Shown: positions 24,013 through 42,161, numbered from the stretch's first letter. The stretch is 64,000 nt of DNA from Candidatus Aminicenantes bacterium (GCA_963702005.1 OY969696.1:32001-96000); one strand, 5' to 3'. Program-made: numbers and translations. Notes: generated from the letters alone by a model not told the origin.

Positions 24013-25086
24013 ATGAAAACGAGATACGGAATCGCGGCAGTCCTGATCGTGGCGTTCGTCCTCGTCGTCATCGGAACGAACGGGCTCTTCGCCCAGGACA
24101 AAGGCAAAGCCCAGCCCGAACAGCAGCGGGTCTATATCCCCAAGCAGGTCAAGGCCGTCCTTCAGGAAGGCTTGCTGACCCGGCAGGGCCGTCAGGATAT
24201 CCCTTTCAGCTTTGCCCGGCATCTGTACCTTCCGGCCCGGGACAGCCTCCACAACATCATCTATTTTAAAGTTAAGAACGCGGACCTGAACTACGCGCCC
24301 ACCGCCGTCGTCCCGGCCGCTCCCACCGCGCCCGAACAGGCCCAGCCGGCGGCCGCGCCCGCTTCTCTCGAGGCCAAATTCAACGTCTTCCTGTGGTTCT
24401 CGACGCTCGCCGAGGACGGGATGCTCCAGACCATCAAGGAAGTCTATGTCCCGGCCACGATCGAGACGCCCGCCGAGGGCTATGACCCCGAGAAGGTCGA
24501 ATCCTATTCGTTCGGCTACCCGCTGCCGGCCGGACGTTACTTGCTGGCCATGGCCGTCACCTCGCAGGATCTGTCCAAGATCGGGACCGGCTATTTCGAG
24601 TTCGCGACGCCGAACCCGGCGGGCCTGGCCGGCCAGATCGACACGACCCCGATCTTCTTCGCCAAGTCCTTCGACCAGATGCAGGCTCCGGAAACCCGGA
24701 CCGAGATCCACAAGGATTATTTCACCTACTCGATCCTCAAGCTGGAGCCCAAAACGGAGAACGTCTTCGCCCAGGGCGAGAACCTGGACATCTTTTTCTT
24801 CATCTTCGGCCTCAAGCTCAACGACCAGCAGAAATACGACCTCCTGATCAGCTACGAGGTTAGAAAGGGCGAAGAGACGGCCATCCGCTATGAGGATCAG
24901 CCTTCCGTCTCCCCGCTCGTCTCCCAGCCGCTGCCCTTGAAGCAGACCGTCCTCATCAAGTCCGATAAGGGCGAGACCAAGGAAGAGCGGGATCTCGGAG
25001 TCGGGCTCTACACGCTTGCCATCAAGATCACGGACAAGGTCTCGGGAGTGACGGCCGAAAAGAAGGTCGATTTCGAAATCAAGTAA
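24013..25086 (+). CDS. Exported hypothetical protein resembling the beta-sandwich regions of the neighbouring GWxTD proteins (no GWxTD motif)
   Basis: Signal peptide; GGAGG RBS; LPAGRY.L and G.Y.L.I.ITD Ig-like strands similar to those in the GWxTD genes. Confidence 0.6.
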   Translation: MKTRYGIAAVLIVAFVLVVIGTNGLFAQDKGKAQPEQQRVYIPKQVKAVLQEGLLTRQGRQDIPFSFARHLYLPARDSLHNIIYFKVKNADLNYAPTAVVPAAPTAPEQAQPAAAPASLEAKFNVFLWFSTLAEDGMLQTIKEVYVPATIETPAEGYDPEKVESYSFGYPLPAGRYLLAMAVTSQDLSKIGTGYFEFATPNPAGLAGQIDTTPIFFAKSFDQMQAPETRTEIHKDYFTYSILKLEPKTENVFAQGENLDIFFFIFGLKLNDQQKYDLLISYEVRKGEETAIRYEDQPSVSPLVSQPLPLKQTVLIKSDKGETKEERDLGVGLYTLAIKITDKVSGVTAEKKVDFEIK

Positions 25087-25121
25087 TCCTTGACGAGCGG
25101 GAAAATATCCCGAATCGCTCG

Positions 25122-27206
25122 TCAGGGACGTTTCTCGATCTCCGCCGCTAGCTTCCGGACCTCCGGCTGGGAAGGATTGAGCTTCAGGGAGGCTTTGAAC
25201 GCCTCGAGGGCCTTGGCCTTCTGACCCGTTTTCTGGTAGCAGGAGCCGAGCGCGTTCAGGAGTTGCGTATCGCTGTTGTAGATCCGGTTCCCGGCCAGTA
25301 AGCTTTCGATGGCCTCGGGATAGAGCCCTTTTTCCATCTGGGCCGTCCCGCGCAGCCGCCAGTAATCGAAAGCCTTCTGGGGATCGTCCTTGATCCGCTC
25401 CACGAGCTCGAGGGCCTTGTCGTACTTCCGGACCTTGACCAGGAACTGGGCGTACCAGAGGGCGCCGTTCTTGTAATCCGGGTTCATCGCAAAAGCCCGG
25501 TCGTAGTGGGCTTCGGCCTTGTCGTCGACGCCAGCCTTGTCGTACTGACGGGCCAGCATGTAGAAATAGAGGAATTGGTTGGCGAGGGGGACGGCCTTCG
25601 AGTTCGAGACCGGATGACCCATGGCCTTCTCGGCCGTGACGATGAAGTTCGCCGAGGCCTCGTCGAGGACCGTTCCCGCCCCGTCGACCCAAGTCAGGGT
25701 CAGCTTGTAATAATCGGGCTCGAGCTCGCCAGCCGAGATGGACTGACTGAGGCCGAGCATCCGGCTCGGCTGGTAACTCTGGAGCCGGACGATATAGGAC
25801 TTCTGGACGGGATTCTTCTCGCGCAGCCCCTGGACGCCGACCCGGACCTCGCCGGCGCGCAGTCCCTCGTCGAACCGGGACAGGTTGAATAGAAAGGTGA
25901 CCGGGTCGGCCGCGGCGTAAGTGTTCCGGGGGTCGACGGCGAGCTTGCTGTCCAAGACCTTAAAGGGCAGCTGGATGTCGCGCGGGTAAGTTTCGACCCG
26001 GTAGCCGAGGTAGGGGCCGAAAATATGAGGCGCGGCCGGTTCGCCGGGCACGTCGATGTCCCTCTCGACGACCGAGAACTCCTTGCCGACCGCGTTCTGG
26101 AGGAGGATCGACATCTTGTAGCGCCCTTCCGCGGCCGGGAAACAATCCTCGATGGCCAGGCCGTTGGCCTGGATCCGGGGAAGTTCCTCCTCCTTGAAAT
26201 AGAGGGTGTAATCCCGGTTGTACTGGAAGAGGATCGTCTCCCCCTGGCGGAGGCTGACGTCGAGCCGGAAGGCGCAATAGTAGCGCTCCTTGGGGTTGTA
26301 GTAGTCGAGCGAGACGGTCTTGGGAACGACCGAGAAGTGAACGAAGGAAAGCCCGATCAGGGGATCGGGGATGATGTCGACGGCCGCGTCGCTTTCGATG
26401 TAGTTCGTCAGATACTCCGTGCTGACGATGCCTTTATAGTTCAGGAAGTGGGTCGCGTAGGATGTGTTGATGTCTTTCTGGGGCGACTGGAGGATGTCGG
26501 CTATCAGGATGCTGTTCCGGGGCGAGGGCGAATAATCGGGATTGTATTCGCCCGGAATGTAGGAAATGGACAGGTCGGCCAGGGTCGGCTCCATCTCCTT
26601 GATCTTTTCGTAAAGCTCGAGGTAGTCCGTGGGATCGACGTCGCGCTTGTTGACGAGAAGGCTGGCCGGGCCGTCGGCGACCGGGTCGTAGAGCTTGTAC
26701 TCGCCGACCCCGCCCCGCTGGAAGAAGAGCAGGACGAAGAGGGACGGGAGTTCCTTCGCGGGATCGCCGTAATAGGACCAGCCCTCGCAGGGGACGATAT
26801 GGGCCGAGACCTCGAAGCGCTCGATCGAGACCGGCGGTCCGAGGATGATATAAATACGGCCCCGGTCTGTCCGCCAGCCCTCCCGGACCGTGCTCCGCCC
26901 GTAGATTTTATTGGCGTAGGCGAAACGCTTGAGGTGCTCATCCTTGTACTCGTTCTCGGGCGTCCCCGGGGTCGGGTCCCGCTGCCTCCAGAAAGCTTCG
27001 ATATAAGAATCCCGGTCCCGGTCCGTCTGGAGGGCCAGGAAGACCTCCTTTTCCTTGGGGGTGATGATGTAGGTGACGAGCTTGAGCCAATCCCGGTATG
27101 TCTCGCCGAGGCCGGCCTCGATGGATTTGGCGGCCTTGTCGCCCGAGGCGAACAGCGACGCCGCCAACAGGCTTCCGCAGACGAGAGAGACGATTTTCTT
27201 GTTCAT
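25122..27206 (-). CDS. GWxTD domain protein with C-terminal TPRs
   Basis: Signal peptide; FWRQRDPTPGTPENE...GWRTDRGRIYIILGPP; TPR helices at the C-terminus. Confidence 0.88.
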   Translation of the reverse strand: MNKKIVSLVCGSLLAASLFASGDKAAKSIEAGLGETYRDWLKLVTYIITPKEKEVFLALQTDRDRDSYIEAFWRQRDPTPGTPENEYKDEHLKRFAYANKIYGRSTVREGWRTDRGRIYIILGPPVSIERFEVSAHIVPCEGWSYYGDPAKELPSLFVLLFFQRGGVGEYKLYDPVADGPASLLVNKRDVDPTDYLELYEKIKEMEPTLADLSISYIPGEYNPDYSPSPRNSILIADILQSPQKDINTSYATHFLNYKGIVSTEYLTNYIESDAAVDIIPDPLIGLSFVHFSVVPKTVSLDYYNPKERYYCAFRLDVSLRQGETILFQYNRDYTLYFKEEELPRIQANGLAIEDCFPAAEGRYKMSILLQNAVGKEFSVVERDIDVPGEPAAPHIFGPYLGYRVETYPRDIQLPFKVLDSKLAVDPRNTYAAADPVTFLFNLSRFDEGLRAGEVRVGVQGLREKNPVQKSYIVRLQSYQPSRMLGLSQSISAGELEPDYYKLTLTWVDGAGTVLDEASANFIVTAEKAMGHPVSNSKAVPLANQFLYFYMLARQYDKAGVDDKAEAHYDRAFAMNPDYKNGALWYAQFLVKVRKYDKALELVERIKDDPQKAFDYWRLRGTAQMEKGLYPEAIESLLAGNRIYNSDTQLLNALGSCYQKTGQKAKALEAFKASLKLNPSQPEVRKLAAEIEKRP

Positions 27207-27248
27207 GGCAGCAACCTCGCTCCGCTGGGATGGGACCCGCCCCGCGGT

Positions 27249-28178
27249 CTATCTCACCTTGATTTCGAAGATCTTGCGGATCTTGCCCGAGGCGCCCTCT
27301 TCGCCCCGGATGATGACGTCGCAGTAGTAGGAACCGGCCGCGAGCTCGACCGGAAAGCTGAAGGTCAGGGCCTTGCTCCGGACCAGCTCCTCCTGGGACA
27401 GGGAGAGGGATTGGCTCTTCTGGAATTTGTTCTTCCAGTTCCCCTCGGCCTGGTACAGGAAGAATTCGAAGGCCAGGCTCGCGTTGAGGCGGCCGGCCTC
27501 GTCCTTGAAGCTCAGCGTGTTGGCGGGGAGGGTCACGACCAGGCTTCGGGACGCCGCGTCGTAGGTCAGCTTGAAATCGACGTATCTCTTGCGGAAGACG
27601 TCGTTCCCCGTCGCGGCCTGGCCGAGTTTGACGATCTCCATGGCCTCGAAGAAATCCCCTTCATAGCGGCGGATCCGGTACTCGCCGGTTCCGCTCTCGT
27701 CGGCGAATTCGATCCCCAGATTGTAGTTGTAGTAGGCCCACCAGATGATCGACCCCCGGACGTCCTCCTCTCCATGGCTGAAGAATTCCTCGAACTTGTC
27801 GGGCGGGCCCATGTAAATATAGATTCGGCCCCTGTCCGTCTTCCAGCCCGGCCGGCCCTCCTTGAAGTGCTTGTTGGCGTATTCGATCCGGCGGTCGAAC
27901 TCGTCCTTGAACTCGTTGGCCGCAGTATCCGGGTCGGGATCGCGCTTGTCCCAGAAGTCTCGGATGAACTCTTTCCGGGCTTCGGCGTCCGGCAGCTGGC
28001 TGAAAATCTTCTGCTCCTCCCCTGTCATGATCAGCCGGGCCGTTTCGTAGAAGGCTTGGCTCTCGGGGTCGAGGGCGACCTTGGGTGTCGAGGCGCAACC
28101 GGGCCAGAAAGCCAGCGCAACGCCGAGCAGGACACCCGTTCCCCAAAAGGATAAAGACGCGCGTTTGATGGGATTCAT
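27249..28178 (-). CDS. GWxTD domain lipoprotein
   Basis: Hydrophobic stretch ending in PG-C; FWDKRDPDP...NE, GWKTDRGRIYIYMGPP. Confidence 0.85.
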   Translation of the reverse strand: MNPIKRASLSFWGTGVLLGVALAFWPGCASTPKVALDPESQAFYETARLIMTGEEQKIFSQLPDAEARKEFIRDFWDKRDPDPDTAANEFKDEFDRRIEYANKHFKEGRPGWKTDRGRIYIYMGPPDKFEEFFSHGEEDVRGSIIWWAYYNYNLGIEFADESGTGEYRIRRYEGDFFEAMEIVKLGQAATGNDVFRKRYVDFKLTYDAASRSLVVTLPANTLSFKDEAGRLNASLAFEFFLYQAEGNWKNKFQKSQSLSLSQEELVRSKALTFSFPVELAAGSYYCDVIIRGEEGASGKIRKIFEIKVR

Positions 28179-28201
28179 GGGTCTTGCCGCCTCGCCCCTG
28201 G

Positions 28202-29125
28202 TTATTTCTTCTTCAGGGTGTCGAGGAAGCCCCGGACCTGGCCGGCCCGCTCCGACTCGGTGTCGATCGTCAGGTAGCGCTCGAAGGCCGCGATGGCCTC
28301 GGCGTTATTGCCCAGGGCCAGGTTGGACAGTCCCGTGTAGTAGATGGCGTCCGTGAATTCCTTCTGGATCTCGACGGCCCGCTTGTAGTAGCGGAGGGCG
28401 TCCTCGAACTTGGAGGAGTTGTAGAAACTCGTCCCGATGTTGTAGAGGACGATCGGGTCCTCGATCTTGTCGAACTGGATCTTCCCGTACCACTCGAGGG
28501 CCTTGTCGGCCAGGCCCCGGTTGGCATAGCTGTTACCGACCAGGAGCATGGCGTCGTAATTCTGGGGGTACTTGTCCAGGACTTTGAGGTAGTACTCCTC
28601 GGCCTTGGCATAGTCTTCCCGGGCGAAGTAGCAGTTGCCGATGTTTCTGTAGATGAGGGTGGCGTCGGGCGACTTGGCCAGGATTTCGTTGTAGACGGCC
28701 TCGGCCCCGGCGTAGTCCTTGGCTTCGAAGAGCTGGTTGCCCTTGGTCAGGAGCTCCTTGACTTCATCGGTGATGACCATGCCCACGACCTTGGCCAAAG
28801 CGACCTTGATCTCGGCGTTCCGGCCGTACTCCACGACGTCGGCGCTGATCTTCTTGGGTATGAACCCGATTTTCTCGAAATCGATGTTCCAGCCGCCGCC
28901 CCGGATCCAGGCGGCGACCCATTTCCCGTCCTTGTCGGAGAGGACCTCGAACCCGCTCTGACCCCTCAGGGAGAAGAGCTTGACCTTGACGCCGTCGAGG
29001 GGAGCACCCGCCTCGTCGTAAACGTAGCCGACGACGCGGCCTTTCCCCTTGTATTCTTGAGCGGCCGACAAGCCGCCGGCAAGGAAGAACAGGGTCGCGA
29101 ACAGGGCCGTCTTTCTCGTCATCAT
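28202..29125 (-). CDS. Exported carboxypeptidase-regulatory-like domain + TPR protein
   Basis: Signal peptide; G.V.DE.G.PL.GV.V.L...D..G.W; TPR repeats. Confidence 0.82.
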   Translation of the reverse strand: MMTRKTALFATLFFLAGGLSAAQEYKGKGRVVGYVYDEAGAPLDGVKVKLFSLRGQSGFEVLSDKDGKWVAAWIRGGGWNIDFEKIGFIPKKISADVVEYGRNAEIKVALAKVVGMVITDEVKELLTKGNQLFEAKDYAGAEAVYNEILAKSPDATLIYRNIGNCYFAREDYAKAEEYYLKVLDKYPQNYDAMLLVGNSYANRGLADKALEWYGKIQFDKIEDPIVLYNIGTSFYNSSKFEDALRYYKRAVEIQKEFTDAIYYTGLSNLALGNNAEAIAAFERYLTIDTESERAGQVRGFLDTLKKK

Positions 29126-29199
29126 CGCGCACCTCCGAACTTGAGCTCGAGCCCTCCTCGTCCTTCCGTTAAGGGCTTCATTTTAGCATTCCGCCCGGC

Positions 29200-29268: not shown

Positions 29269-29291
29269 GAGTTTCTGCGTGTGCTCTCTGC

Positions 29292-32200
29292 TTAGAACGT
29301 GAACCGGACGCCGACCCGAAGGACTCTCGGGTTGAGAATTTCGTTCAGGGAGTAGTTGTAGGGATAGGGGACGAAATAGTTCTGGCTGGAGTCGGGGTAG
29401 ATGTAGTACGTTCCGTAGAACTTCTGGTAGCGGCGGTTCACGATGGCGCTGTTGAGGAGGTTGAAGAGGTCGCCCATGATGTAGATCCGGCCGGTCTCGC
29501 CGAGCCTGATCATCTTCTCGATGCGGAGCGTGAAGTTGTAGAAGGTGGGCAGCCGATTGCTGCCGAACGGGTTCATCATCAGGCTCGCGCTGCGGCTTCT
29601 CGGGTTGGGCAGGCGGTAGTCGACCAGGGCGAAGTACTCGGTGATGACCCAGCCTTCTCTGGCCTGGAAGGTCATGGCGACGTCGACGTCGTAGGGGAGC
29701 TGGATGAGGCCGCCGATCTTGGCCATCCAGCGGGCGTAGGTGTACTGATTGATCTTGCCCGAGGCGCCGCCGATGTAGGCCGACTGGGGATAGCCGTCAT
29801 AGGCCCAAACGTTGGTCGGGTCAAGATAGCCGTTGCTGCCGAAGTGCTGGGCCTGCCTCTGCCAGGTGAAGTTGGCGTTAAGCATCCACTTGTTGGAGAG
29901 CCGCTTGTTGAGCAGGAGGTCGACGCCCCAATAATCCGTGTTGAAGTCGGGCCGCGACTGGATTTGGGTATAGGGCGAATAGGCGGAGCCCGCGACGGAC
30001 ATGTAATACCACTCGTGGTTCTTGGCGTCTTTCGTGTCGCCTATGCCGGGGATATCGTCGGGCGGCTTGCCGGCCGGGACGTACCAGTTCTTGTTCTGGA
30101 TTTCGCTGATGGTTGTCGCGTCGCCGAAGTACTTGAGGGTCCAGGAGTTCTTGTCGTACTTCCGGTAGGTTCCGACCAGGGACACGCTGAAGTCGGCCAG
30201 GATTTCGCGCTCCAGGGTCAGCATGACTTCGGAGGTCCGGGTCGAGCCGGAGCCCTTGGCCGTGCTCTGGTAGGGAGCGGTCAGCTTGGTGGGATTCTGA
30301 TAATCGTAGCCCCCCCAGTGCCAGCCGGCTTCTCGGTTCCAGTTGCCGGTGAAGTTCCCGGCGTCATCGTAGATCCGGTAGGGAGCCATCGTATCGACGT
30401 TGGTCCAGTACAGCTCCGTGAAATTCATCTTGCCGTCGTTGTTGGTGTCCCACCAGTAGGTGAAGAACCAGCCGTCGGCGCCGCCCGGCCGCCATCTGTC
30501 GGCCAGGCCGACGCCCATGAAGTCGCCGTACTGGGACAGGGACAGCTTGGCGATGGTCTTGCCGTCGCCGCTCACGTCCCAGGTCAGACCGAGGCGGGGC
30601 GACCAGACGGTCCAGTTGTAGGCGCTGCCGTCGAAGTACTTGGCTTCGGTCTTGGGAATGTCGATCCCGGGCATGGCCTGGTCGAGCTTGTCCATGGTCG
30701 CCGTGTCGGCCAGCTGCTGCCAGGCGCCGCCCTTATCGACCGCGTAGACCTTGAACGGATTGATCATGGGCTTCTGCATATCCCAGCGCAGGCCGAGCAG
30801 CAGGTTGAAGCGGCCGAAGCTGACCGTATCGCTCAAGTAGCCGGCCAAGGCGCCGACGTGGAGGTCGGAATAGTAGCCCCGGTAGAAGGTCACGTCATAG
30901 AAGTTGCTCATGGACGGGACGTCGGGAAGGCCGTCGCCGTCGAAATCGACCGTCGGGTAGTTGATGTTTCGGGTCAGGATGACGTTCCCGGACCAGACGG
31001 ACTCGGTGTAGGCGTTCCGGTCGGCGTACTCGAATCCGGCCTTAATGTCGTGGCTGGCCCCGAACAGGTTATCGTTGAAATAGTTGACCAGGGCGTTGTA
31101 CTGGTAGGCGGGCCGCTCGACGTAGTAACGCTGGGCCTGGGAGCCGTAGTAGCGCTGGGCGGTGGCGTCCCAGATCACGAGCTGGTCGAAGGCGAGGTCC
31201 GTCATCGGGGTCAGCGAGAACCCGGCGTCGGAGTAGGCGTACTTCAGGGAGACGAAGAAGTTGTCCCCGAACATGTGCTCGTCCTGGAGCTTGACGATGG
31301 GCGAGCCGAAGTGGAATCGGCCCTGTTGGTAGAGGCCTTCGGGGTTTTCGGCCGAGGTCGATCGGCCGAATTTCTTCTTGCCGCCGACGTGGATGAAGGC
31401 CTCGAACCGGTTCTCGGGAATGATCTGGAGGTTCAGCTTGGCGGCGTAGTTCTCGAGCAAGGTGTCGTCCTTGGTCGTATAGACGGTCGTGGTCTTGATG
31501 TCCTGAATCCCGTAGGAGCCCCAGAACCAGGCCTTGTCCTTGAGGAGCGGCAGGCCGATATTAAAGCCGTAATCCTTGTTGTTGTTGATCTTGTTGATGC
31601 CCAGGGCGCCTTCCTGCTTGAACTCGTCCTTGAAGTTGTCGGCCTGGAACTTGGAATCGACCATGTAGAAGCGGCCGCCGAAGGTGACCTTGTTGCCGCC
31701 GCGGCGTGTCACCATGTTGAGGGCGACGCCGCCCGTCTGGACGGTGACATCCGCGCCGCCGACCACGATATTCATCTCCTCGAAGGCGTCGAAGTCGTAG
31801 TAGCTGGGGGAGGCGCCGATGGCGGCCGGGTCGGTGATGACGATGCCGTCCATGGCCCAGACGTTGTTGTCGTAGGTGCTCGCGCCGCGGGCGACGTAGT
31901 TGGACTGCTGCCCGGACTCGGCGCCGCCGACGTTTTCACGGTCGACGATGACCGAGGGCGCCATCTGAAGGATGACCCAGGGGTCGCGGGCGGTCGGCAG
32001 CAACTGCAGGACTTCCTGGGTGACGTTGGCGCCGACGGCCGTCTTTTTGATGTCGACCATCGGGCTGACGGCCGTAACCGTGATCTGCTCCTCGAGAGCG
32101 CCCATCTCTAGGGCCAGGGTCAGGTTGGTGTTGCCGCCGACGACGATGATGATCTCTTCCTCGGTCCGGGTCTTGAATCCCGTCAGCTCGGCCTTCAGGG

Positions 32201-32423
32201 CGTAATCCTTGGCCGGGGGCAGGGACAGGAACCGGAAAATGCCTTCTGCTGAAGAAACCGTCGTCATCGGAGCCGTCAGGCTCCCGGTCAAGGTCACCGT
32301 GACGCCGGGAAGGGCGTTGCCTTCCGGGTCAACGACCTTGCCGTAGATGTTGCCGGTTCTCTGCTGGGCAAAAGCGGAGACGGCCAGTAACAGCACGCAC
32401 AGGGTGATTAATGTCTTTCTCAC
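29292..32423 (-). CDS. TonB-dependent receptor-like outer-membrane barrel (Oar-like) with N-terminal carboxypeptidase-regulatory-like domain
   Basis: Signal peptide; G.V.D..G.ALPGVTV; plug DG...D and GG..N.VT..G.N; WSPRLG..WD; terminal Phe. Confidence 0.9.
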   Translation of the reverse strand: MRKTLITLCVLLLAVSAFAQQRTGNIYGKVVDPEGNALPGVTVTLTGSLTAPMTTVSSAEGIFRFLSLPPAKDYALKAELTGFKTRTEEEIIIVVGGNTNLTLALEMGALEEQITVTAVSPMVDIKKTAVGANVTQEVLQLLPTARDPWVILQMAPSVIVDRENVGGAESGQQSNYVARGASTYDNNVWAMDGIVITDPAAIGASPSYYDFDAFEEMNIVVGGADVTVQTGGVALNMVTRRGGNKVTFGGRFYMVDSKFQADNFKDEFKQEGALGINKINNNKDYGFNIGLPLLKDKAWFWGSYGIQDIKTTTVYTTKDDTLLENYAAKLNLQIIPENRFEAFIHVGGKKKFGRSTSAENPEGLYQQGRFHFGSPIVKLQDEHMFGDNFFVSLKYAYSDAGFSLTPMTDLAFDQLVIWDATAQRYYGSQAQRYYVERPAYQYNALVNYFNDNLFGASHDIKAGFEYADRNAYTESVWSGNVILTRNINYPTVDFDGDGLPDVPSMSNFYDVTFYRGYYSDLHVGALAGYLSDTVSFGRFNLLLGLRWDMQKPMINPFKVYAVDKGGAWQQLADTATMDKLDQAMPGIDIPKTEAKYFDGSAYNWTVWSPRLGLTWDVSGDGKTIAKLSLSQYGDFMGVGLADRWRPGGADGWFFTYWWDTNNDGKMNFTELYWTNVDTMAPYRIYDDAGNFTGNWNREAGWHWGGYDYQNPTKLTAPYQSTAKGSGSTRTSEVMLTLEREILADFSVSLVGTYRKYDKNSWTLKYFGDATTISEIQNKNWYVPAGKPPDDIPGIGDTKDAKNHEWYYMSVAGSAYSPYTQIQSRPDFNTDYWGVDLLLNKRLSNKWMLNANFTWQRQAQHFGSNGYLDPTNVWAYDGYPQSAYIGGASGKINQYTYARWMAKIGGLIQLPYDVDVAMTFQAREGWVITEYFALVDYRLPNPRSRSASLMMNPFGSNRLPTFYNFTLRIEKMIRLGETGRIYIMGDLFNLLNSAIVNRRYQKFYGTYYIYPDSSQNYFVPYPYNYSLNEILNPRVLRVGVRFTF

Positions 32424-32457
32424 TCAATACCTCCTTTTTTAAACCCCTCCTCAAACG

Positions 32458-33387: not shown

Positions 33388-33407
33388 AGGAGTCTCCTTC
33401 CGTGTAT

Positions 33408-35447
33408 TCATGGTTCCTTCCGGGCCCGCGCCAGGAGCGCCCGAGCGGCCGGCTGGCCGGGGACAAGGCTCAGGGACTTCTCGAGGAGGGGGATCGCCTT
33501 TTCGGGCCGGCCCAGCTCGATCTGGCATTCGGCGGCCAGGTTCAGGACGCCGACCTCGGTCGCCCCTTCCATGAGCTTCTCCAGGTAGCCGAGCGCCGAG
33601 GCCCAGTCCTTGAGGCCGGCCAGGTCGAGGGCCATGACCTTGGCGGCTTCGCGGTCGCCGCGCGCCTCATAAAGGGGGTTCGCCGCCGCGAGCGAATCGC
33701 GGAAGCGGTTCAGGGCGAAAAGCGTCTTGGCGAACAGAAGCCTCGTCTCGGGACTGTCCTTGAGAGCGAGCGCCCGCTCGAGGAGAGGAGTCGCTTGGTC
33801 GTAGCGGCGCATCATGAAATGCTGGGTGGCTAAAACGGTCAGCCCGTCCGGGTCGGGGAAAGCGTCGCGGACCTTGGCCAAGGTCCAAGGGATGACGGCA
33901 ACCGGCTGGGCCAGAAGGATGAAAGGCGCCTTGGCGCCGAGGACGGTCCGGCCGCCCCCGTCCGAGACGGAGGCCCGGACTTCGTAGTAGCCGGGCTTGA
34001 GTCCGGCAAGATTGAAACGCGCCGTGCCCAGCCCGCCGTCGGGACCCAGCACGTCCTTAAGGACCTTCGGGTCGGCCGCCGCGGCGACTTGTCCATCGAG
34101 CGTATAGATCCCGAACCCGATCGTGTGTCCGGCCAGCCCCTCCAGGCCGACGCCTTGGAGGAAGCAGACCATGGTTTCCTGGGGGGTGAACTCGTCCCGG
34201 GCGCTGACGGCGAACTGAAGGCCGTTGAAGGCGAAAGGCTTGAGCCTGGTCCGTTCGGCGTCCGGGACCGGCTCCTGGCCGTGGCTGAGGAGGAGGTCGC
34301 CGAGCCGCGGACCGGGCCCGCCTGGAACGACGACCCTTGCCTCGACCGAGGTGAAGTCGCGGCCCGTTTTGTTCTTGAGGAGGAGGCTGATCTTGAAGGT
34401 CCCCTCGACGACCGGGAGGACGTCCTGGAAAGCGAAGCGGCGGCGCTCATGGCTCCGGTACTGCTCCTCGTTGAGGCGGAGCGGGATCTCTTCCTGGGCT
34501 TGGTAAACGAGGTTCCCGTCCGGGTCCTCGAGCCTCAGGAAAAGCTCGAACTGGGCCAGGTAAACGCCGCCGCGGAGTTCGAAGTTGATCCGCTCCGGCT
34601 CGAGCGTCCAGTGGAGATAAGCCTGGCCGTTCGTCCGGAACAGCCGGACCTTGAAGTCGCTCCCCAGGAAGCGGTCGGAATATTCGGTCTCGACGAAATC
34701 CTTGAAATCGAGGTAGGAGCGGGCGTAGGTGTCGGAAAATTTCTTGTCCTTGAGCTCCTTGATGCCGGCGATGACCGCTTCCGAGGACAGCGAGGACAAG
34801 CCGTAATTCTTCTCGCCCGCGATATAGCTCGTCGCGGCGCTCGAAAGTTCCGCCGAGACTTTCTTGATGATCGCGATGGCATTCGTTCGCTGAAGGGACT
34901 GGCCGTAGAGCGAGGGGACGACGAGCTTCTCGGGCCCCTCGACGCCGGGATAATAGAGCCGGTAATCCCCGATGCCCTCGGGCTGGTAGAAAATGAGGTA
35001 GAAGTAGTCCGGGAGCCCGTAGCGCTCCTCGCCTTTGTAAAACCAGAGCTCCAGGGGCCAGACCTCGGACTGGGTCGCGAAGCGCTGCCGCTCGAGGGGC
35101 GGGCCGAGCAGCAGGTAAAAATAGCCGCGCTCGGTCTGGTGGCCCTTCTTGTGGGAGCCGATCCCGAAGTTCCGGTCGGCGAAGTCGACCCGGACCATGT
35201 ATTCCTTGGTGAACTCGTTTTCGGGCGTGTCGGGAAAGGGATCGCGCTGTTTCCAGAAGAAACGTATGAACTTATCGCGGTCCGCGTCCGTCTTGAGCTG
35301 GAGGAAGATCTCCCGCTCGGTCGAAGTCAGGATGGGATCGACCATCGCGAGCCAATCCCTGTAAACCGTCGGCAGCTCGTCCTTGGCCGCCAGGCCGGAG
35401 AGAGCGGCCGCGAGGATAAGGACGATGACGGGAAGACGTCTTCTCAC
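33408..35447 (-). CDS. GWxTD-family protein with degenerate motif (GHQTERG) and C-terminal TPRs
   Basis: Signal peptide; FWKQRDPFPDTPENE; collinear with 25122..27206. Confidence 0.85.
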   Translation of the reverse strand: MRRRLPVIVLILAAALSGLAAKDELPTVYRDWLAMVDPILTSTEREIFLQLKTDADRDKFIRFFWKQRDPFPDTPENEFTKEYMVRVDFADRNFGIGSHKKGHQTERGYFYLLLGPPLERQRFATQSEVWPLELWFYKGEERYGLPDYFYLIFYQPEGIGDYRLYYPGVEGPEKLVVPSLYGQSLQRTNAIAIIKKVSAELSSAATSYIAGEKNYGLSSLSSEAVIAGIKELKDKKFSDTYARSYLDFKDFVETEYSDRFLGSDFKVRLFRTNGQAYLHWTLEPERINFELRGGVYLAQFELFLRLEDPDGNLVYQAQEEIPLRLNEEQYRSHERRRFAFQDVLPVVEGTFKISLLLKNKTGRDFTSVEARVVVPGGPGPRLGDLLLSHGQEPVPDAERTRLKPFAFNGLQFAVSARDEFTPQETMVCFLQGVGLEGLAGHTIGFGIYTLDGQVAAAADPKVLKDVLGPDGGLGTARFNLAGLKPGYYEVRASVSDGGGRTVLGAKAPFILLAQPVAVIPWTLAKVRDAFPDPDGLTVLATQHFMMRRYDQATPLLERALALKDSPETRLLFAKTLFALNRFRDSLAAANPLYEARGDREAAKVMALDLAGLKDWASALGYLEKLMEGATEVGVLNLAAECQIELGRPEKAIPLLEKSLSLVPGQPAARALLARARKEP

Positions 35448-35774: not shown

Positions 35775-38510
35775 TTGAAAGCGAAAGCATTGATCGGTAT
35801 CATCGCCCTGCTTCTCGTCCTTTCGCCCGTCGCCTTCGCCCAGTCCCGCGACACCGGCGCCATCACCGGCAAAGTCGCGGATGAGGAAGGCAACGCGCTG
35901 CCGGGCGTCAACGTAACGCTGACCAGCCCCAACCTGATGGGCGCGCGGGCGACCGTCAGCGACGCGACCGGGGTTTTCCGCTTCCCGGCCCTGCCCCCCG
36001 GCGAGTACGGCCTGAAGGCCGAGCTTCAGGGCTTCGGCACAACGGTCCGCGAGAACATCCGGGTGACGACGACGACGACCCTCAACGTCGACCTGACCAT
36101 GAAGCCCGCGGCCGTGGCCGAGGAAATCACGGTCGTGGCCCAGTCGCCCACGGTCGACGTCAAGTCGACCGAGACCGCTTCCGTGACCCTCAGCAACGAA
36201 ATCCTGAGGAACATCCCCTATAACCAGTTCACCTCCAATATCGTCAACCTCGCCCCCGGCGTCACGGAAAACGTCGCCTATGGCGCCTCCGAGAGCACGG
36301 GGATCGCCTACACGATGGACGGCGTCAACGTCGCCGACCCCGAAGCCGGATCGGCCTGGGTCTTCATGGACCACAACTCCATCGAAGAGGCCAAGGTCAT
36401 GGGAATCGGCCTCCCGGCCGAATACGGGAACTTCACGGGCGTCATCTTCAACCTGGTCACGAAGTCCGGCGGAAACGAGTTCTCCGGGCACTTCGAGTTC
36501 GACTTCCAGGGAAAAAAGACGGACAACCCCAAGGGCCTCTGGCAGACCGACAACAACCAAGCTTATCTCCATGACTTCCCCGATTTGACCTCCCCCCTGA
36601 GCAAGCTCCTTGATGTCGGCGCCCACCTGGGCGGCCCGATCATGAAGGACAAGCTCTGGTTCTACGTCGGCACCCAGTACTACAGGAGCCAGAACTATCC
36701 GGCCGGCTTCCCCGAGGCTGTCGACTACAAGCAGCCGCGCTTGTTCACCAAGATCACCTCCCAGCTCACGCCCTCGTTGAACCTCACCGTATCGCTCGAG
36801 ATCGACACCTACGTCGGGAAGAACCGCGGCGCGGATGCGACCGTATCGCCCGAGGCGACCGTAACCCAGGATTCGCCCGAGATCGTCGGCAACTTCAGCC
36901 TGACCAAGATCCTCAGCCCGAAGACTTTCTTCGACCTCAAGGGCGCCTTCTTCACCGGTTACTACTACCTCGACCCCGAAGTCGGCAGGAACATCTACTC
37001 CCACTTCAGCATTGACGAGAACAGGCTCCGCGACAGCTCCGGCTACTTCGGCTACTACGACCGGAGCCGCTTCCAGGTCAATGGGTCCATCTCCCATTAC
37101 ACCGAGAATTTCATCACGGGCGCCCACGACTTCAAGTTCGGCGTCGAGGCCGAGTACTCCAAGGTCCGGGACCGCTACGGCTACACGGGGAAGGGCGGAC
37201 CGCTGGGCAACGCCGTCAAGTACCAGGACTACTACGGCCAGCCCTACCTGGCCTACCAGTACGAAGGGTACGACACGAACACCCGCTACGCCCGCGTCGA
37301 GGCCTTCGCCCAGGACTCCTGGCAGGTCACGAGCCGGCTCAACATCAACGTCGGCTTCCGCTTCGGCCAGAACTGGGGCTTCATCAAGAATGTAGACGGG
37401 GCCAAGTATAAGACCTTCCGCATCGCGCCGCGGATCGGGCTCACCTTCGACCTCTTCGGCGACAAATCGACCATCCTCAAGGCCCATTACGGCCAGTTCA
37501 CCGAGGCCATGCTCTCTTCCTACCTCGACCGCCTCAACCCCGACTCGGCCTACAAGGACTACGTCGGCTACTACTGGACCGGAACCGGCTGGGAGGAGAT
37601 GTTCCGCACCGTCCATCAGTCCCTCTACAAGATGGACCCGGACATCAAGCACCCCTACATGGATCAGGTCACGGCCGGCTTCGAGCGTGAGCTCTTCCGA
37701 GACGCGTCCCTCGGCGTGACCTTCATCTACCGCAAGTGGAACAACATCATCGGCCCCGTCGACCGCGCCGCCCAGTACAACCTGGTCGACGTCTATTCGG
37801 CCGCCCTGAATAAAACCTTCCAGATCTACGAGCGGACCGAGGACACCGTCGACACCCACGACTACCTCCTGACCAACATCAAGAAGGGAGGCTATATCCT
37901 GGAAAACCCCTACCGGAAGTACACGGGGATCGAGGTCCTCTTCAACAAGCGGTTCTCGAACCGGTGGCAGCTGCTGGCCTCTTACGTCTACGGCCGGGCG
38001 ACCGGAACCACGGACAACGGGTTCGCCGACGACATCGGTTGGGGCGGCAACGTGTTCGACCCCAACTTCTGGATCAACTCCGACGGGAATTCGACCTTCG
38101 ACCCGACCCACATGCTCAAGCTCCAGGGGACCTACATCCTGCCCTTCGACATCAGCTTCAACGCCTACTTCCGGCTCATCACCGGCGAGGCCTGGACGAC
38201 CCGCGTCCGGACCCGCACCCTCAACCAGGGCCGTGTGACCTTCTTCGCCGAGAAACGGGGATCCAACCACTACCCGGCCGAGAAGATCCTCGATGTCCGC
38301 CTCGAGAAAATCTTCACCCTCGCCTCCAGGTATAAGCTGGGCCTGATGGTCGACGTCTTTAACGTCTTCAACACTGACACGATCAACTCCTGGGGTACGC
38401 GGATCGGCTACGACTGGAACCAGGGCGACTATCCCTCCACTAACGGGCACGAGCTCTACGGAATCGTCCAGCCGCGCCAGGCGAGAGTCGGCATCCGGGT
38501 CATCTTCTAA
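35775..38510 (+). CDS. TonB-dependent receptor-like outer-membrane barrel (Oar-like)
   Basis: TTG start after AGGAGG; signal peptide; PAEYG..TG...N.VTKSGGN; APRIG; terminal Phe. Confidence 0.9.
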   Translation: MKAKALIGIIALLLVLSPVAFAQSRDTGAITGKVADEEGNALPGVNVTLTSPNLMGARATVSDATGVFRFPALPPGEYGLKAELQGFGTTVRENIRVTTTTTLNVDLTMKPAAVAEEITVVAQSPTVDVKSTETASVTLSNEILRNIPYNQFTSNIVNLAPGVTENVAYGASESTGIAYTMDGVNVADPEAGSAWVFMDHNSIEEAKVMGIGLPAEYGNFTGVIFNLVTKSGGNEFSGHFEFDFQGKKTDNPKGLWQTDNNQAYLHDFPDLTSPLSKLLDVGAHLGGPIMKDKLWFYVGTQYYRSQNYPAGFPEAVDYKQPRLFTKITSQLTPSLNLTVSLEIDTYVGKNRGADATVSPEATVTQDSPEIVGNFSLTKILSPKTFFDLKGAFFTGYYYLDPEVGRNIYSHFSIDENRLRDSSGYFGYYDRSRFQVNGSISHYTENFITGAHDFKFGVEAEYSKVRDRYGYTGKGGPLGNAVKYQDYYGQPYLAYQYEGYDTNTRYARVEAFAQDSWQVTSRLNINVGFRFGQNWGFIKNVDGAKYKTFRIAPRIGLTFDLFGDKSTILKAHYGQFTEAMLSSYLDRLNPDSAYKDYVGYYWTGTGWEEMFRTVHQSLYKMDPDIKHPYMDQVTAGFERELFRDASLGVTFIYRKWNNIIGPVDRAAQYNLVDVYSAALNKTFQIYERTEDTVDTHDYLLTNIKKGGYILENPYRKYTGIEVLFNKRFSNRWQLLASYVYGRATGTTDNGFADDIGWGGNVFDPNFWINSDGNSTFDPTHMLKLQGTYILPFDISFNAYFRLITGEAWTTRVRTRTLNQGRVTFFAEKRGSNHYPAEKILDVRLEKIFTLASRYKLGLMVDVFNVFNTDTINSWGTRIGYDWNQGDYPSTNGHELYGIVQPRQARVGIRVIF

Positions 38511-38534
38511 AGTTCCAACTCGAGCTGAAGCTCA

Positions 38535-38584
38535 CCCCGTCCTCCGCCATCCCGTAAGGGATGGGAGAGGACGGGGCTTTTTTT
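38535..38584 (+). terminator. Rho-independent terminator
   Basis: CCCCGTCCTC..CCATCCC-GTAA-GGGATGG..GAGGACGGGG followed by a T-run. Confidence 0.8.
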
Positions 38585-38615
38585 CCCCCGACTTTTTGTT
38601 AAAATTAAGCACGTT

Positions 38616-40928
38616 ATGAAGAAAAAAGGGGTCGTGCTCGGAGCAGCGGTCGCCGTCCTCGCCGCGGGAGCGTTCCTCCTCATTCGCCTTCGGCCGGCGT
38701 CCTTCCGGCGGCTGGCCGGGGACGCGACCTACAACGTCGTCCTAATCACCGTCGACACGCTCCGGGCCGACCGGGTCGGCTGCTACGGCTTCAGCCAGGG
38801 CGAAACGCCGACCATGGACCTGTTCGCGGCCCGCGGCGTCAGGTTCGAGCGCTGCACGTCGCAGACGCCGCTGACCCTGCCCTCCCACACCACCATCATG
38901 ACCGGCACCTTCCCCCCTTTCCACGGCGTCCGCGACAACGGGGGCTTCATCGTCCCGCCCGAGCTCACGACCATGGCCGAGCTCTTCAAGGGGCGGGGCT
39001 ATACGACGGCCGCCTTCGTCGGCGCCTACGTCCTCGACTCCAAGTGGGGCCTGAACCAGGGCTTCGATTACTATTTCGACCAGTTCGACCTGAGCCGGTT
39101 CGAAAAGATCTCCCTGGCCAACGTCCAGCGGCCGGGGGGAGAGGTCATGGACGAAGCCCTCCGCTGGCTCGAGACCAAGAAGGACGCTCCCTTCTTCGCC
39201 TGGATTCATCTCTACGATCCTCACACGCCCTACGAACCGCCCTCTCCCTATAAAGAAAAGTACGCCAAGCATCCCTACCTGGGGGAGATCGCCTACGCCG
39301 ATTCCCAGCTCGGCCGTCTCTGGTCGTTCCTGGGCGACAAGGGTCTCCGGGACCGGACCTATCTCGTCTTCGCCTCCGACCACGGCGAAAGCCTGGGCGA
39401 GCACCAGGAAGCGACCCACGGTTTTTTCGTCTATCAAGCGGCGATCCACGTCCCGCTCATTTTCGTGACGCCTTTCCCCCGGCTCCAGGGCGTCGTCTCG
39501 CCGGCCGTAGTCTCCCTCGCCGACGTCCTTCCGACCGTCTGCGAGATGGCCGGCTTCGTACCACCGCCCCAGGTCCAAGGCCAAAGCCTCGTCCCCTTTT
39601 TCATCAGGCCGGCCCGCAGGTCGGAGCGTCTCGCCTACTCCGAAACGTTTTATCCCCGCTTCCACTACGGCTGGTCCGAGCTCCAGAGCGTCCAGGACGG
39701 CCGCTACAAGCTCATTCTCTCCCCCGAGCCCGAGCTCTATGACCTGGCCCAGGATCCGGCCGAGGCCACGAACATTATCGAGAAGGAACGACCCGTCTTC
39801 CTGGCCCTCAACGACCGGGCTTCCGCCTTCACGGCCGCGGCCGCCCGGAACGGCTTCGAGCTCGACATCCGCAAGATCGACGAGGAGACCCGGACCAGGC
39901 TCGCCGCGCTCGGCTACCTCGGATCCTTCTCCGATCCGGCCAAGCTCAAGGGGAAACGGCTGGCCAGCCCGCGCGACAAGATCGGGATCTTCAACGAGCT
40001 GTCCCGGGCCCGCGAGACGGGCCTTCAGGGCGACGCCCGGGCGGCGATCGGGATCATCCAGCGGATCATCGCCGAAGACCCCGAAATCACCGACGCCTAT
40101 TTCTCGCTGGGGAACATCCACTTTCGGCTCGGCGAGTACGACGAGGCCATCCGGGCCTTCCGCCAGGCCTTGGAGAAGAAGCCGGACGACGCCTTCACCG
40201 TCATCAATATCGCCAATTCCTACCTGGCCATGGGCCGCTTCGCCGAGGCCGAGCGCTTCGTCCTGGATTATTTCAAGACGGGATTCGGGGACTCCCAGCT
40301 CTACTTCCTGCTCGGGAACATGAATTTTCTCCGGAAAAATTACGACGCCGCCATCCCCTACCTCGAGAAGTGCCTGTCCCTCAATTCCGAGTCCGCCTCC
40401 TCCCACAGCACGCTGGCCGCTATTTATATCATCAAAGACGACCTGGGCCGGGCCCAGGAGCACCTCGACGCCGCCCGCCGACTCAACCCGCGCTTGAGCG
40501 GCCTCTACTACAACCAGGCTCAACTCCTCGAGAAGCGGGGAGAAGTCGGCGCGGCCATCGCCGCCTATCAAGAGGAGCTTCTTTACTCCCCCAAGCACTT
40601 CAAATCCCTCTATAACTTGACCCGTCTCTTCCGCCAGACGGGGGAGGAGGGCCGGGAATTCGACGCCCTGCGCCGCTGCATCGAGATCGACCCCGGTTTT
40701 CCGCTCTCCTACTTCTACCTGGCCCGGATCTACCTCAATCGGCGCGAGAACTATGAAGAGGCCGTCTCGCTGGTTCAAAAGGGAATCAGCCTCAAGCCCG
40801 ATTCCCTGGATCTGCCTCTGGCCTATTTTCTATTGGCCGACCTCTATAACAGGCTCGGGAAGGATTCGCTGTCCCGCGAATACGCGCGAAAGGGCCAGGA
40901 GCTGTCTTCAAGGAAAGCCCAGGAATAG
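38616..40928 (+). CDS. Membrane-anchored sulfatase-like (alkaline phosphatase superfamily) hydrolase/transferase with C-terminal TPRs
   Basis: NVVLITVDTLRAD, TLPSH (in place of CxPxR), DPH and SDHGE motifs; TPR array. Confidence 0.88.
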   Translation: MKKKGVVLGAAVAVLAAGAFLLIRLRPASFRRLAGDATYNVVLITVDTLRADRVGCYGFSQGETPTMDLFAARGVRFERCTSQTPLTLPSHTTIMTGTFPPFHGVRDNGGFIVPPELTTMAELFKGRGYTTAAFVGAYVLDSKWGLNQGFDYYFDQFDLSRFEKISLANVQRPGGEVMDEALRWLETKKDAPFFAWIHLYDPHTPYEPPSPYKEKYAKHPYLGEIAYADSQLGRLWSFLGDKGLRDRTYLVFASDHGESLGEHQEATHGFFVYQAAIHVPLIFVTPFPRLQGVVSPAVVSLADVLPTVCEMAGFVPPPQVQGQSLVPFFIRPARRSERLAYSETFYPRFHYGWSELQSVQDGRYKLILSPEPELYDLAQDPAEATNIIEKERPVFLALNDRASAFTAAAARNGFELDIRKIDEETRTRLAALGYLGSFSDPAKLKGKRLASPRDKIGIFNELSRARETGLQGDARAAIGIIQRIIAEDPEITDAYFSLGNIHFRLGEYDEAIRAFRQALEKKPDDAFTVINIANSYLAMGRFAEAERFVLDYFKTGFGDSQLYFLLGNMNFLRKNYDAAIPYLEKCLSLNSESASSHSTLAAIYIIKDDLGRAQEHLDAARRLNPRLSGLYYNQAQLLEKRGEVGAAIAAYQEELLYSPKHFKSLYNLTRLFRQTGEEGREFDALRRCIEIDPGFPLSYFYLARIYLNRRENYEEAVSLVQKGISLKPDSLDLPLAYFLLADLYNRLGKDSLSREYARKGQELSSRKAQE

Positions 40929-41017
40929 CCGGCCCAAAATCCAAATATTTGCAGTTATCCAAAATAATGGCATCGCCGGGCCGCTATCTCCCTGCCGGAT
41001 TCTTCTTATTTATTTAT

Positions 41018-41069
41018 TATCAAAGATTTACTAAATTCTTCGGGGTCCTGCTTTTGGCACGGATATTGC
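41018..41069 (+). promoter_or_regulatory. IHF site plus sigma54 promoter with no obvious downstream gene
   Basis: TATCAA-AGAT-TTA (WATCAANNNNTTR) at 41018-41030; TGGCAC-GGATA-TTGC at 41055-41069. Confidence 0.7.
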
Positions 41070-41180
41070 CATTAAATAAGCGCCGTGTTTACGGTTAGGG
41101 AAAAAGAGGAAACTAAGTGAAGGGCAAACTCGAAGAAACTGGAGGTGAGAATCACTCGGCCGGCAGCTGAACTTTCCGGA

Positions 41181-42161
41181 TCAAGACAGACCGAGCGACT
41201 CGAGGAGCTTGCGGATCTCGGCCGCGTTGGACGCGTCGGGCGCGAGTTCGAGATAGGTCTTTAAAGAGAGTTTAGCATTTTCGATATCCCCCGTGCGGAG
41301 ACGCGAGAACCCGAGCTTGAGCCAGGGATCGGGCCAGTTCGGCTTTATCCGGGTCGTCAACGTGTAATAAGAGACGGCTTCGTCGAACATTCCGTTGGAA
41401 AAATAAATCTCTCCGATGCCGAAGGGCAGGCTCGCGTATTTCGGATAGAGGGCGAGCGCCTTCTCGAATTCGGCACGGGCCGTCGCCGGGTCGCCCCTTC
41501 TTAGGGCGATCTCGCCCGTAGCGGCAAGCGTCTTGGTCGCCAGCGCATCCCCGTTCATGTCGGGGTTCGTCTCCCGGACCTTGTCGAGGACCAAGCCGTA
41601 CTCTTCGAGGGCTTTATCGTATTCGCCCATCTCCTTGTAGCAGTTGCCGATGTTGAAATGGACCTGGAAATGGTTGGGGTGCTTGTCCAGGAATTGTCGG
41701 TAGAGACTAAGGGCTTCGTTGCAGTTCTTATCCTCGAACAGCCGATTTCCCCTCTCGATGAGCCCAAGATCCTCCTCGGCGTCCGGCCCTTTGGGCTGAG
41801 CCTTTCTCAGGACCGATTTCACAGCCGCGTTCCTGCCGATCTGGCTGACGTAGGTTTCCTCGATTCTCGGCCTGTAGCCCTCGAGGGTCAGGATGATCTT
41901 CCAGACGCCGCTCCCCAAGCCCAGGATGCCCCACTTCCCTTTCCGGTCCGTAACGACTTCCCGGAGCGTTTCGGATTCGATGTGCAGCAGGGCGACCCTT
42001 ACGCCGGGGAGCGGGTTTCCGGCCTCGTCCCTGACCTCGCCCGTCAGCCGGACGTTCCCCATCCCTTCCTGAACCAGCGCGCTCGACCCGGCCAGGGACC
42101 CGGCCAGACAAACCGCGGCTAAAATTTTAAGGGCGCCCTGGATCATTCCGCGTCCGTCCAT
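41181..42161 (-). CDS. Exported carboxypeptidase-regulatory-like domain + TPR protein
   Basis: G.V.DEAG.PL.GV.V.L...TD.KG.W; TPRs; paralog of 28202..29125. Confidence 0.82.
   Translation of the reverse strand: MDGRGMIQGALKILAAVCLAGSLAGSSALVQEGMGNVRLTGEVRDEAGNPLPGVRVALLHIESETLREVVTDRKGKWGILGLGSGVWKIILTLEGYRPRIEETYVSQIGRNAAVKSVLRKAQPKGPDAEEDLGLIERGNRLFEDKNCNEALSLYRQFLDKHPNHFQVHFNIGNCYKEMGEYDKALEEYGLVLDKVRETNPDMNGDALATKTLAATGEIALRRGDPATARAEFEKALALYPKYASLPFGIGEIYFSNGMFDEAVSYYTLTTRIKPNWPDPWLKLGFSRLRTGDIENAKLSLKTYLELAPDASNAAEIRKLLESLGLS

Follow-up and report, generated by a model that had tools for sequence, protein, structure and literature searches.

The 64,000-nt window analysed here, bases 32001-96000 of the 4,309,361-base genome of a Candidatus Aminicenantes bacterium (GCA_963702005.1, OY969696.1), holds ten consecutive genes for envelope proteins, which we call g1 to g10 and whose coordinates are positions in the window. 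Most of their products belong to a few families: GWxTD proteins, Oar-type TonB-dependent barrels, proteins that join a CarboxypepD_reg domain to TPRs, and a sulfatase-fold enzyme with TPRs. The ten genes are best read as a modular cassette, centred on an Oar-type barrel, that is present in two or three tandem copies. Beside the barrel the cassette has four accessory parts: GW-L, a long GWxTD protein; GW-S, a short GWxTD protein that is probably a lipoprotein; a CarboxypepD_reg-TPR protein; and a membrane-anchored sulfatase-fold-TPR enzyme.

An initial annotation, made from the sequence alone, had listed ten adjacent envelope genes at this locus, and domain searches found them where it had placed them, with the domains it had named. 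Its statement that all ten products are exported or anchored agrees with inspection of the N-termini, each of which has a hydrophobic signal-like or anchor segment. The six co-oriented minus-strand genes it had noted (g7 to g2, 35447 to 25122) are separated by gaps of 20-166 nt, and the gaps between the ten genes are too small for additional genes. No SusD, glycoside hydrolase, TonB/ExbBD, STN, sigma-factor or anti-sigma family was found among the ten proteins, in line with its view that the locus is of neither the SusCD nor the Fec type.

Table 1. Genes of the cluster, with positions in the window and the domain matches that identify their products (GW-L and GW-S, long and short GWxTD proteins; aa, amino acids; ORF, open reading frame)
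Gene	Position	Strand	Product and context
g1	24013..25086 (alternative start 23980)	+	exported, signal-like N-terminus; no Pfam/NCBIfam family; convergent with g2
g2	25122..27206	-	GW-L, ~690 aa; TIGR04514 107.7 bits, C-terminal TPR
g3	27249..28178	-	GW-S, probable lipoprotein, 309 aa; TIGR04514 109.2 bits
g4	28202..29125	-	exported CarboxypepD_reg + TPR; PF13620 E 1.8e-7, 31.9 bits (cut-off 32.3)
g5	29292..32423	-	Oar-type TonB-dependent barrel; CarboxypepD_reg + Plug + OMP_b-brl_4
g6	32458..33411 (longest ORF to 33528)	-	exported CarboxypepD_reg + TPR; PF13620 52.8 bits
g7	33408..35447	-	second GW-L, ~690 aa; TIGR04514 91.7 bits, TPR
g8	35775..38510	+	second Oar-type TonB-dependent barrel; divergent from g7
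g9	38616..40928	+	N-terminally anchored sulfatase-fold protein with C-terminal TPR array; PF00884 150.4 bits (cut-off 25)
g10	41181..42161	-	third exported CarboxypepD_reg + TPR; PF13620 42.7 bits; convergent with g9

The CarboxypepD_reg-TPR proteins g4, g6 and g10 are ~310-330 aa long, and g4 matches many TPR families. The true start of g6 is probably 33411 or 33387, since the start of the longest ORF overlaps g7 and these two internal starts precede a signal-like segment. The G+C content of the cluster (0.58-0.63) is the same as that of the remainder of the window. Promoters and terminators in 23500-42800 were found at chance level (6 against 4.0 expected and 18 against 20.1, respectively). 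The listed sequencing runs that contain this stretch are all DNA runs from wetland and sediment metagenomes, with no RNA run among them.

Recurrence of the cassette

The ten proteins were compared with every six-frame ORF of the genome that is 90 aa or longer (12,547 ORFs), which gave four families totalling 46 genes: 13 GWxTD, 15 Oar-type barrels, 8 CarboxypepD_reg-TPR and 10 sulfatase-fold-TPR. Forty of the 46 sit in 11 clusters with members of two or more families (the other six are solitary), and 12 of the 15 barrels have a partner gene in the same cluster. An Oar-type gene lies within 6 kb of 11/13 GWxTD genes (random mean 0.74), 8/8 CarboxypepD_reg-TPR genes (random mean 0.43) and 7/10 sulfatase-TPR genes (random mean 0.59), and none of these counts was equalled in 20,000 shuffles. 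Seven family pairs were tested in all, six of which gave 0/20,000; the seventh, sulfatase-TPR within 6 kb of GWxTD, was reached by 11/20,000 shuffles.

GWxTD genes are present in 41/41 genomes of the same order (4-16 matches each) and in 117/151 sampled genomes of the phylum, or 114/148 without G063, G088 and G186, which are flagged as unpublished and each have a match. The domain was found in 0/14 control genomes, including Bacteroides thetaiotaomicron. Eighty loci from other Aminicenantes genomes, each anchored on a GW-L gene at 32-56% identity to g2, were scanned with profiles built from this genome's paralogs, and 60 of them contain at least one partner: an Oar-type gene in 43, GW-S in 35, CarboxypepD_reg-TPR in 34 and sulfatase-TPR in 32. 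Of the loci with a length of 18 kb or more (n=37), 28 have an Oar-type gene and 30 have any partner. The density of Oar-type genes is 34.8 per Mb in the anchored loci and 3.5 per Mb across this genome.

Gene order is also kept in other genomes, at protein identities of 35-56%. Two arrangements recur: GW-L, GW-S (one or two copies) and CarboxypepD_reg-TPR, usually with a convergent barrel; and (sulfatase-TPR, CarboxypepD_reg-TPR,) barrel, sulfatase-TPR, GW-L. Homologs of g1 are found in 6/80 loci, in four of which they are convergent directly after a g2-type GW-L gene. The initial annotation had held that these families are functionally linked and not gathered by chance, and this part of it is borne out by the same combination at 11 loci here and 60/80 loci elsewhere in the Aminicenantes. 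We are highly confident that the cassette is a functional unit.

Its further proposal of a single ten-component machine is replaced by two or three tandem cassettes. In L036, a locus of another genome, the order is ddl-yceG-g1-like-[GW-L, GW-S, CarboxypepD_reg-TPR, Oar-type], i.e., g1-g5 alone, the left half of the cluster without its right half. The g8-g9 pair is duplicated at genome 1,083,047-1,088,220, with paralogs of g8 at 62% identity (1085455) and of g9 at 68% (1083047). The nearest paralogs of g2, g4 and g5 (48.5%, 55% and 35% identity) together form a sister cassette at genome 1,016,541-1,024,784, in which the g4 paralog is at position 1019589. Inside the cluster, g7 shares 30% identity with g2 along its full length, and g10 has paralogs of 33-35% identity in the cassettes at genome positions 984592, 2650722 and 3551716.

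Distances between cassette parts also correlate across seven cassettes of this genome (Mantel test), which fits duplication of whole cassettes, although with seven related cassettes the test is a weak one. The correlation is r = 0.68 for GW-L against CarboxypepD_reg-TPR (22/5040 permutations), r = 0.57 for Oar against CarboxypepD_reg-TPR (reached by 142/5040) and r = 0.44 for GW-L against Oar (reached by 285/5040). The CarboxypepD_reg domain of the TPR proteins was closest to the N-terminal extension of the neighbouring barrel in 0/8 cases.

Some cassettes carry or adjoin other genes. An extra TPR-only protein of ~320 aa lies between GW-S and CarboxypepD_reg-TPR in two loci (L055:13228-14193 and L064:13104-14072) and just after CarboxypepD_reg-TPR in a third (L048:15063-16013), and it may be a further optional part. 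One cassette type is flanked in many Aminicenantes genomes by a block of an AcrB-type pump, a baeRF_family10 protein and radical SAM/B12 genes (L045, L046, L050, L052, L055 and L064; not all parts in each). The matching locus of this genome (308387-317175, L011) has kept only a barrel, a ROK gene and a 368 aa GW-S gene. A fragment of a Mutator-family transposase (985976-986431; L001:15976-16431) immediately follows the cassette at genome 979386-985584.

Anatomy of the cassette proteins

The GWxTD family (TIGR04514/PF20094) has a curated cut-off of 28 bits, and g2, g3 and g7 are above it. The AlphaFold2 model of g2 (mean predicted local distance difference test score, pLDDT, 90.0) has a signal peptide, an alpha/beta GWxTD domain (~35-255), two beta-sandwiches (~270-390 and 395-525) and a TPR array (540-692), the last of which matches solved TPR proteins at Z 18-21. 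In the g3 model (pLDDT 87.5), the GWxTD domain is followed by one FN3/immunoglobulin-like (Ig-like) beta-sandwich, for which the best FN3-like match has Z 9.5 and a root-mean-square deviation (rmsd) of 2.3 over 91 aligned residues. GW-S proteins are probably lipoproteins, because a Cys behind the signal segment is kept in at least 90% of 52 aligned members. A complex prediction for GW-L (22-694) with GW-S (29-309) scored under the mark and counts neither for nor against binding.

Invariant positions in the GWxTD domain are occupied mainly by aromatic residues, Arg, Asp, Glu and Asn, and none by Cys, His or Ser. Foldseek and VIA-align searches with the whole g2 and g3 models, in which TPR and FN3-like matches dominated, listed no fold match for the domain. 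Matches to transglutaminase, factor XIII and protein 4.2 (template modelling score ~0.12, rmsd >15) are a lead only. No solved sequence relative was found, and a protein-atlas search for named clusters without PF20094 gave nothing usable for the domain.

The family is large, with 12,867 representatives (50% identity clusters) at E <= 0.001 among 1.84 billion. The best 150 matches include 17 representatives of at least 560 aa, and ten of these are membrane proteins of the BlaR1 type (Peptidase_M56) that carry a pair of GWxTD domains in the periplasmic position; one of the ten additionally bears TonB_C. Two others are GW-L proteins fused to an additional GWxTD domain.

The g1 protein is not a GWxTD member: it has no GWxTD match and no Pfam or NCBIfam family. 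Its nearest protein-atlas clusters are all in Aminicenantota and none has a Pfam family, and by these matches g1 appears to be a member of an Aminicenantes-only family. The nearest named atlas cluster is GWxTD at 0.79, which is a lead only. The hhalign match of g1 to the GW-L profile (probability 0.95%, E 0.057, 36 columns) does not count as evidence that the two are homologous.

Both barrels have a PF13620 domain well above the cut-off of 32.3 bits (g5, 57.8; g8, 66.2). In g5, Plug scores 25.5 bits (cut-off 23.9) and OMP_b-brl_4 scores 29.8 (cut-off 30); in g8, OMP_b-brl_4 scores 121.7 bits and Plug has no match at E <= 0.01. The sequences end in Phe (g5 ...VRFTF, g8 ...IRVIF). Single-sequence phmmer searches with g5 and g8 gave no match among PDB sequences. 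A profile of the 15 paralogous barrels matches solved TonB-dependent receptors over plug and barrel (E 4.4e-18 to 1e-7), including 6ofr (4.4e-18), 5fr8 (2.1e-14) and the ferredoxin receptor 4zgv (1.5e-12, positions 131-719), and its N-terminus matches the regulatory domains of carboxypeptidases D/M. Other parts of the genome encode TonB_C (9 matches) and ExbB (3 matches), so that little can be read into the lack of such genes in the cluster. One ORF of this genome (678 aa, 2179509-2180546) has three tandem TonB_C domains.

The initial annotation had called the g9 sulfatase atypical, and its alignment with paralogs agrees: T-L-P-S-H is kept in g9 and 8/10 paralogs of the genome (the other two have T-L-T-S-H and T-A-A-S-H), and the metal-ligand blocks D-T-x-R-A-D and D-H-G-E...H-G are conserved. 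The motif was taken from this paralog alignment, the displayed alignments of g9 to PDB entries having spanned the TPR part alone. We take the equivalent position in S1 sulfatases to hold the signature C/S-x-P-x-R (formylglycine), from which T-L-P-S-H differs. For this reason, and because PF01663 (Phosphodiest) covers residues 41-109, we infer that g9 is a Thr-nucleophile phospho-enzyme rather than a sulfatase. The Thr-nucleophile group of the alkaline-phosphatase superfamily includes nucleotide pyrophosphatase/phosphodiesterases and phospho-group transferases, and T-L-P-S-H and D-T-x-R-A-D presumably resemble the Thr motifs of that group. However, the best match of g9 overall is PF00884, and solved S1 sulfatases match its C-terminal half, with E down to 4.7e-32. 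We know of no description of a single N-terminal anchor combined with a TPR array of ~300 residues. TLPSH enzymes of the sulfatase fold are probably misannotated as sulfatases in many genomes.

Function and competing explanations

Functional clues come mainly from other cassette loci. In the paralogous loci of this genome, a Peptidase_M55 gene is directly upstream of cassette genes on the same strand, and M28, M61 and M20 peptidases also occur. MFS, GH116 and ROK genes are interleaved with cassette genes at genome 1.74 Mb, a LacI-type regulator is directly upstream of one GW-L gene that has a glutaminase-A-like hydrolase downstream, and two NPP-type phosphodiesterases adjoin cassette genes. 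A scan of 105/170 ORFs flanking cassette loci in other genomes matched M14 (2), Amidohydro_3 (2), GH9 (2), GH20, GH116, ROK (2), GntR, M61 and M48, and in two of these loci an SSF symporter lies between barrel and GW-L. Loci with a lone GW-L (n=7) have genes for the catabolism of sugars and peptides: GH130, alpha-L-fucosidase, 3-keto-disaccharide hydrolase, gamma-glutamyltranspeptidase and MFS genes.

Other clues concern location. In B. thetaiotaomicron, CarboxypepD_reg-type Ig and M56 domains occur on periplasmic Ton-related proteins: the TonB homologs TonB1, 7, 10 and 11 carry M56 or CarbopepD_reg_2 domains and are described as uncharacterised in the available part of the preprint (PMC10350073). 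The M56/TonB_C fusions of GWxTD, these Bacteroides domains and the locus contexts together suggest that GWxTD and CarboxypepD_reg modules sit in the periplasm, within the orbit of Ton-type transport. The ten proteins themselves differ from such TonB/M56 transducers in having neither M56 nor TonB_C. The cassette parts are predicted to span the envelope from inner to outer membrane: anchored enzyme, soluble proteins, GW-S lipoprotein and plugged barrel.

Because paralogous loci hold peptidases, glycoside hydrolases, symporters and ROK/LacI regulators, we favour TonB-powered nutrient uptake as the most likely function, at about an even chance. Each cassette would then be an uptake module for one macromolecular nutrient (peptides, glycans or phosphorylated polymers), which the barrel would admit. 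The GW-S lipoprotein and the soluble GW-L may bind either the cargo or the periplasmic side of the barrel, with the CarboxypepD_reg-TPR protein and the TPR arrays bridging the parts. The anchored Thr-nucleophile enzyme might act on phosphoester-type groups of the cargo, removing or transferring them within the periplasm. Such a cassette would fill the role that SusD-type and other accessory proteins have in Bacteroidota loci, using unrelated proteins.

There are several likenesses to the SusC/SusD loci of Bacteroidota. In both, the TonB-dependent barrel has an Ig-like N-terminal extension of CarboxypepD_reg type, a genome has many paralogous loci, and lipoprotein and helical-repeat accessories are encoded beside the barrel; hydrolases, inner-membrane transporters and sugar-type regulators are shared by some cassette loci. 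In contrast to those loci, the ten proteins include no SusD-type Pfam family (E <= 0.01), the accessories are GWxTD, CarboxypepD_reg-TPR and sulfatase-fold-TPR proteins, the window cassettes have no glycoside hydrolase, and the barrel extension fits PF13620 better than PF13715. Oar of Myxococcus xanthus shares the PF13620 extension, the plug and the large barrel, but a term search of the paper found no GWxTD, CarboxypepD_reg-TPR or sulfatase-TPR partners, and Oar adjoins its own Ton genes, whereas those of the Aminicenantes cassette are elsewhere in the genome (PMC6434023).

A number of observations weigh against uptake, or against a tight bond between GWxTD proteins and barrels. Cassette loci differ in the catabolic genes that flank them, and many of their neighbours are housekeeping genes; the ten-gene cluster itself has no catabolic enzyme, inner-membrane transporter or regulator. 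The conserved residues and fold of the GWxTD domain indicate no known ligand. The only characterised Oar protein is required for protein secretion, not uptake, according to the available part of its description (PMC6434023). In 16 loci from other Acidobacteriota families, all in genomes with one or two GWxTD genes, no Oar-type gene was found within the 20 kb fetched. Conversely, PF25183 matches (E <= 1e-40) are present in 13/20 listed genomes that have no GWxTD match.

In some of these 16 loci, a GWxTD gene of ~550-600 aa follows tatC (Pfam-verified in L099, L101 and L104; L097, L103 and L106 have ORFs of comparable size). In L099 and L104 the order is gidA-parA-parB-AIRS-(tatA)-tatC-GWxTD, an origin-proximal housekeeping context, of which tatC alone is verified in L101. 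In other loci GWxTD adjoins a ~580 aa protein with an N-terminal CarboxypepD_reg domain (Pfam-verified in L105, L108 and L112; weak profile matches in L107, L110 and L111), whose C-terminus in L108 is barrel-like (...GLAFNF). These two contexts also count against uptake, as they hint at a more basic envelope role. In multi-copy genomes from other classes, 8/20 fetched loci have an Oar-type gene. In G172, which has ~14 Oar-type genes in 3.4 Mb, 5/8 listed GWxTD sites lie no more than 2.1 kb from one of them; in G182, with ~45 such genes, ~5-6 of 12 sites lie no more than 6.5 kb away. Given GWxTD loci free of Oar and genomes with Oar-type barrels but no GWxTD, GWxTD proteins are frequent, non-obligate partners of these barrels, and the link is weaker outside the Aminicenantes class. 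The thread common to all classes is a neighbour bearing a CarboxypepD_reg domain.

These points bear on the alternatives. The GWxTD and CarboxypepD_reg-TPR proteins could handle no cargo and instead couple barrels to Ton-type energisers, to regulators or to assembly and upkeep, in which case the GWxTD gene family would have expanded alongside the barrels. The place of GWxTD at the periplasmic sensor position of BlaR1-type M56 transducers (10/17, one with TonB_C) speaks for such an adaptor or signalling role, as do single-copy GWxTD genes in housekeeping contexts (beside tatC or a barrel-like CarboxypepD_reg protein) and the M56 or CarbopepD_reg_2 domains of Bacteroides TonB homologs (PMC10350073). 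Many Oar-type barrels lack a GWxTD neighbour, however, the CarboxypepD_reg domain of the TPR protein is most similar to the extension of its own barrel in 0/8 cases, and the sulfatase-fold enzyme would be left unexplained, so we consider this role unlikely. Somewhat less likely still is export or surface display, with barrels moving proteins outward and the GWxTD, TPR and sulfatase-fold proteins serving as cargo, chaperones or modifiers. An Oar barrel with the same PF13620 extension is indeed required for secretion of the protease PopC in M. xanthus (PMC6434023), every cassette protein carries an export signal or anchor by inspection, GW-S as a lipoprotein with an Ig-like domain could be displayed at the surface, and the window cassettes have no catabolic gene. 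Against this, paralogous cassettes accompany symporters, glycoside hydrolases, peptidases and sugar-type regulators, the cassette holds no conserved candidate for a secreted cargo, and the solved relatives of the barrel profile are importers.

Chance clustering of abundant envelope paralogs with no common function would be conceivable in view of the copy numbers (8 to 15 genes in each of the four families) and of how common TPR proteins are. It is nevertheless extremely improbable: random placement is contradicted by the shuffles (0/20,000 in six of seven family pairs), gene order is kept in other genomes, the cassette parts co-diverge, and GW-L is found naturally fused to GWxTD. TonB-powered uptake stays our preferred reading. 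A bolder version, which we offer tentatively and consider rather doubtful as a whole, is that GWxTD proteins are unrecognised, phylum-wide periplasmic partners of CarboxypepD_reg barrels that, in Aminicenantes, are TPR-assembled with the CarboxypepD_reg-TPR protein and the anchored Thr-nucleophile phospho-enzyme. This would make the cassette a new trans-envelope machine, either an acidobacterial counterpart of SusCD made of unrelated components or a new outer-membrane translocation system.

The families are already annotated and TonB-dependent loci with accessory proteins are known, so what we have not found in print is the accessory set and the conserved cassette. The word GWxTD was not found in the full text of 8.4 million papers and preprints (subscription journals and supplements being outside this scope), and searches on TonB-dependent systems of Aminicenantes and Acidobacteriota turned up no description of the GWxTD/CarboxypepD_reg-TPR/sulfatase-TPR accessory set or of a conserved cassette. 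Most of the helper proteins are not known to have been studied. Soils, sediments and wetlands are rich in Acidobacteriota, Aminicenantes among them, and as these bacteria have no SusD-type systems, little is understood of how they take up polymers. The link of the GWxTD family to one subclass of TonB-dependent barrel and to two further uncharacterised protein types gives it a testable functional context and points to particular proteins for pull-downs, structural work and substrate-induction experiments.

Other features of the window

The cluster has housekeeping flanks: ddl, ruvX and yceG on the left, and on the right an ORF without assignment, a fused LptF/LptG gene and GroEL. The first of the right-hand genes (42264-43574, +) encodes 436 aa with a PHP-like N-terminal motif, ...DLHIHSKFSRATS, and has no Pfam match at 1e-5; it may resemble endonuclease Q. 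The next, a single 799 aa ORF (44507-46906, -) with two LptF_LptG stretches (PF03739, 508 bits), appears to encode an LptF/LptG fusion, the permease for lipopolysaccharide export. Toward the right end of the window, a phage-type integrase (57488-58645, -) precedes a group of ORFs, one of them for a HerA-like DUF87 protein (60969-62989, -), and G+C drops to 0.56 at 58-60 kb; this end may be a mobile or defence island. Near the left end, two adjoining genes (5243-7132, - and 7449-9353, -) encode paralogous Sortilin-Vps10/BNR-repeat proteins of ~630 aa each.

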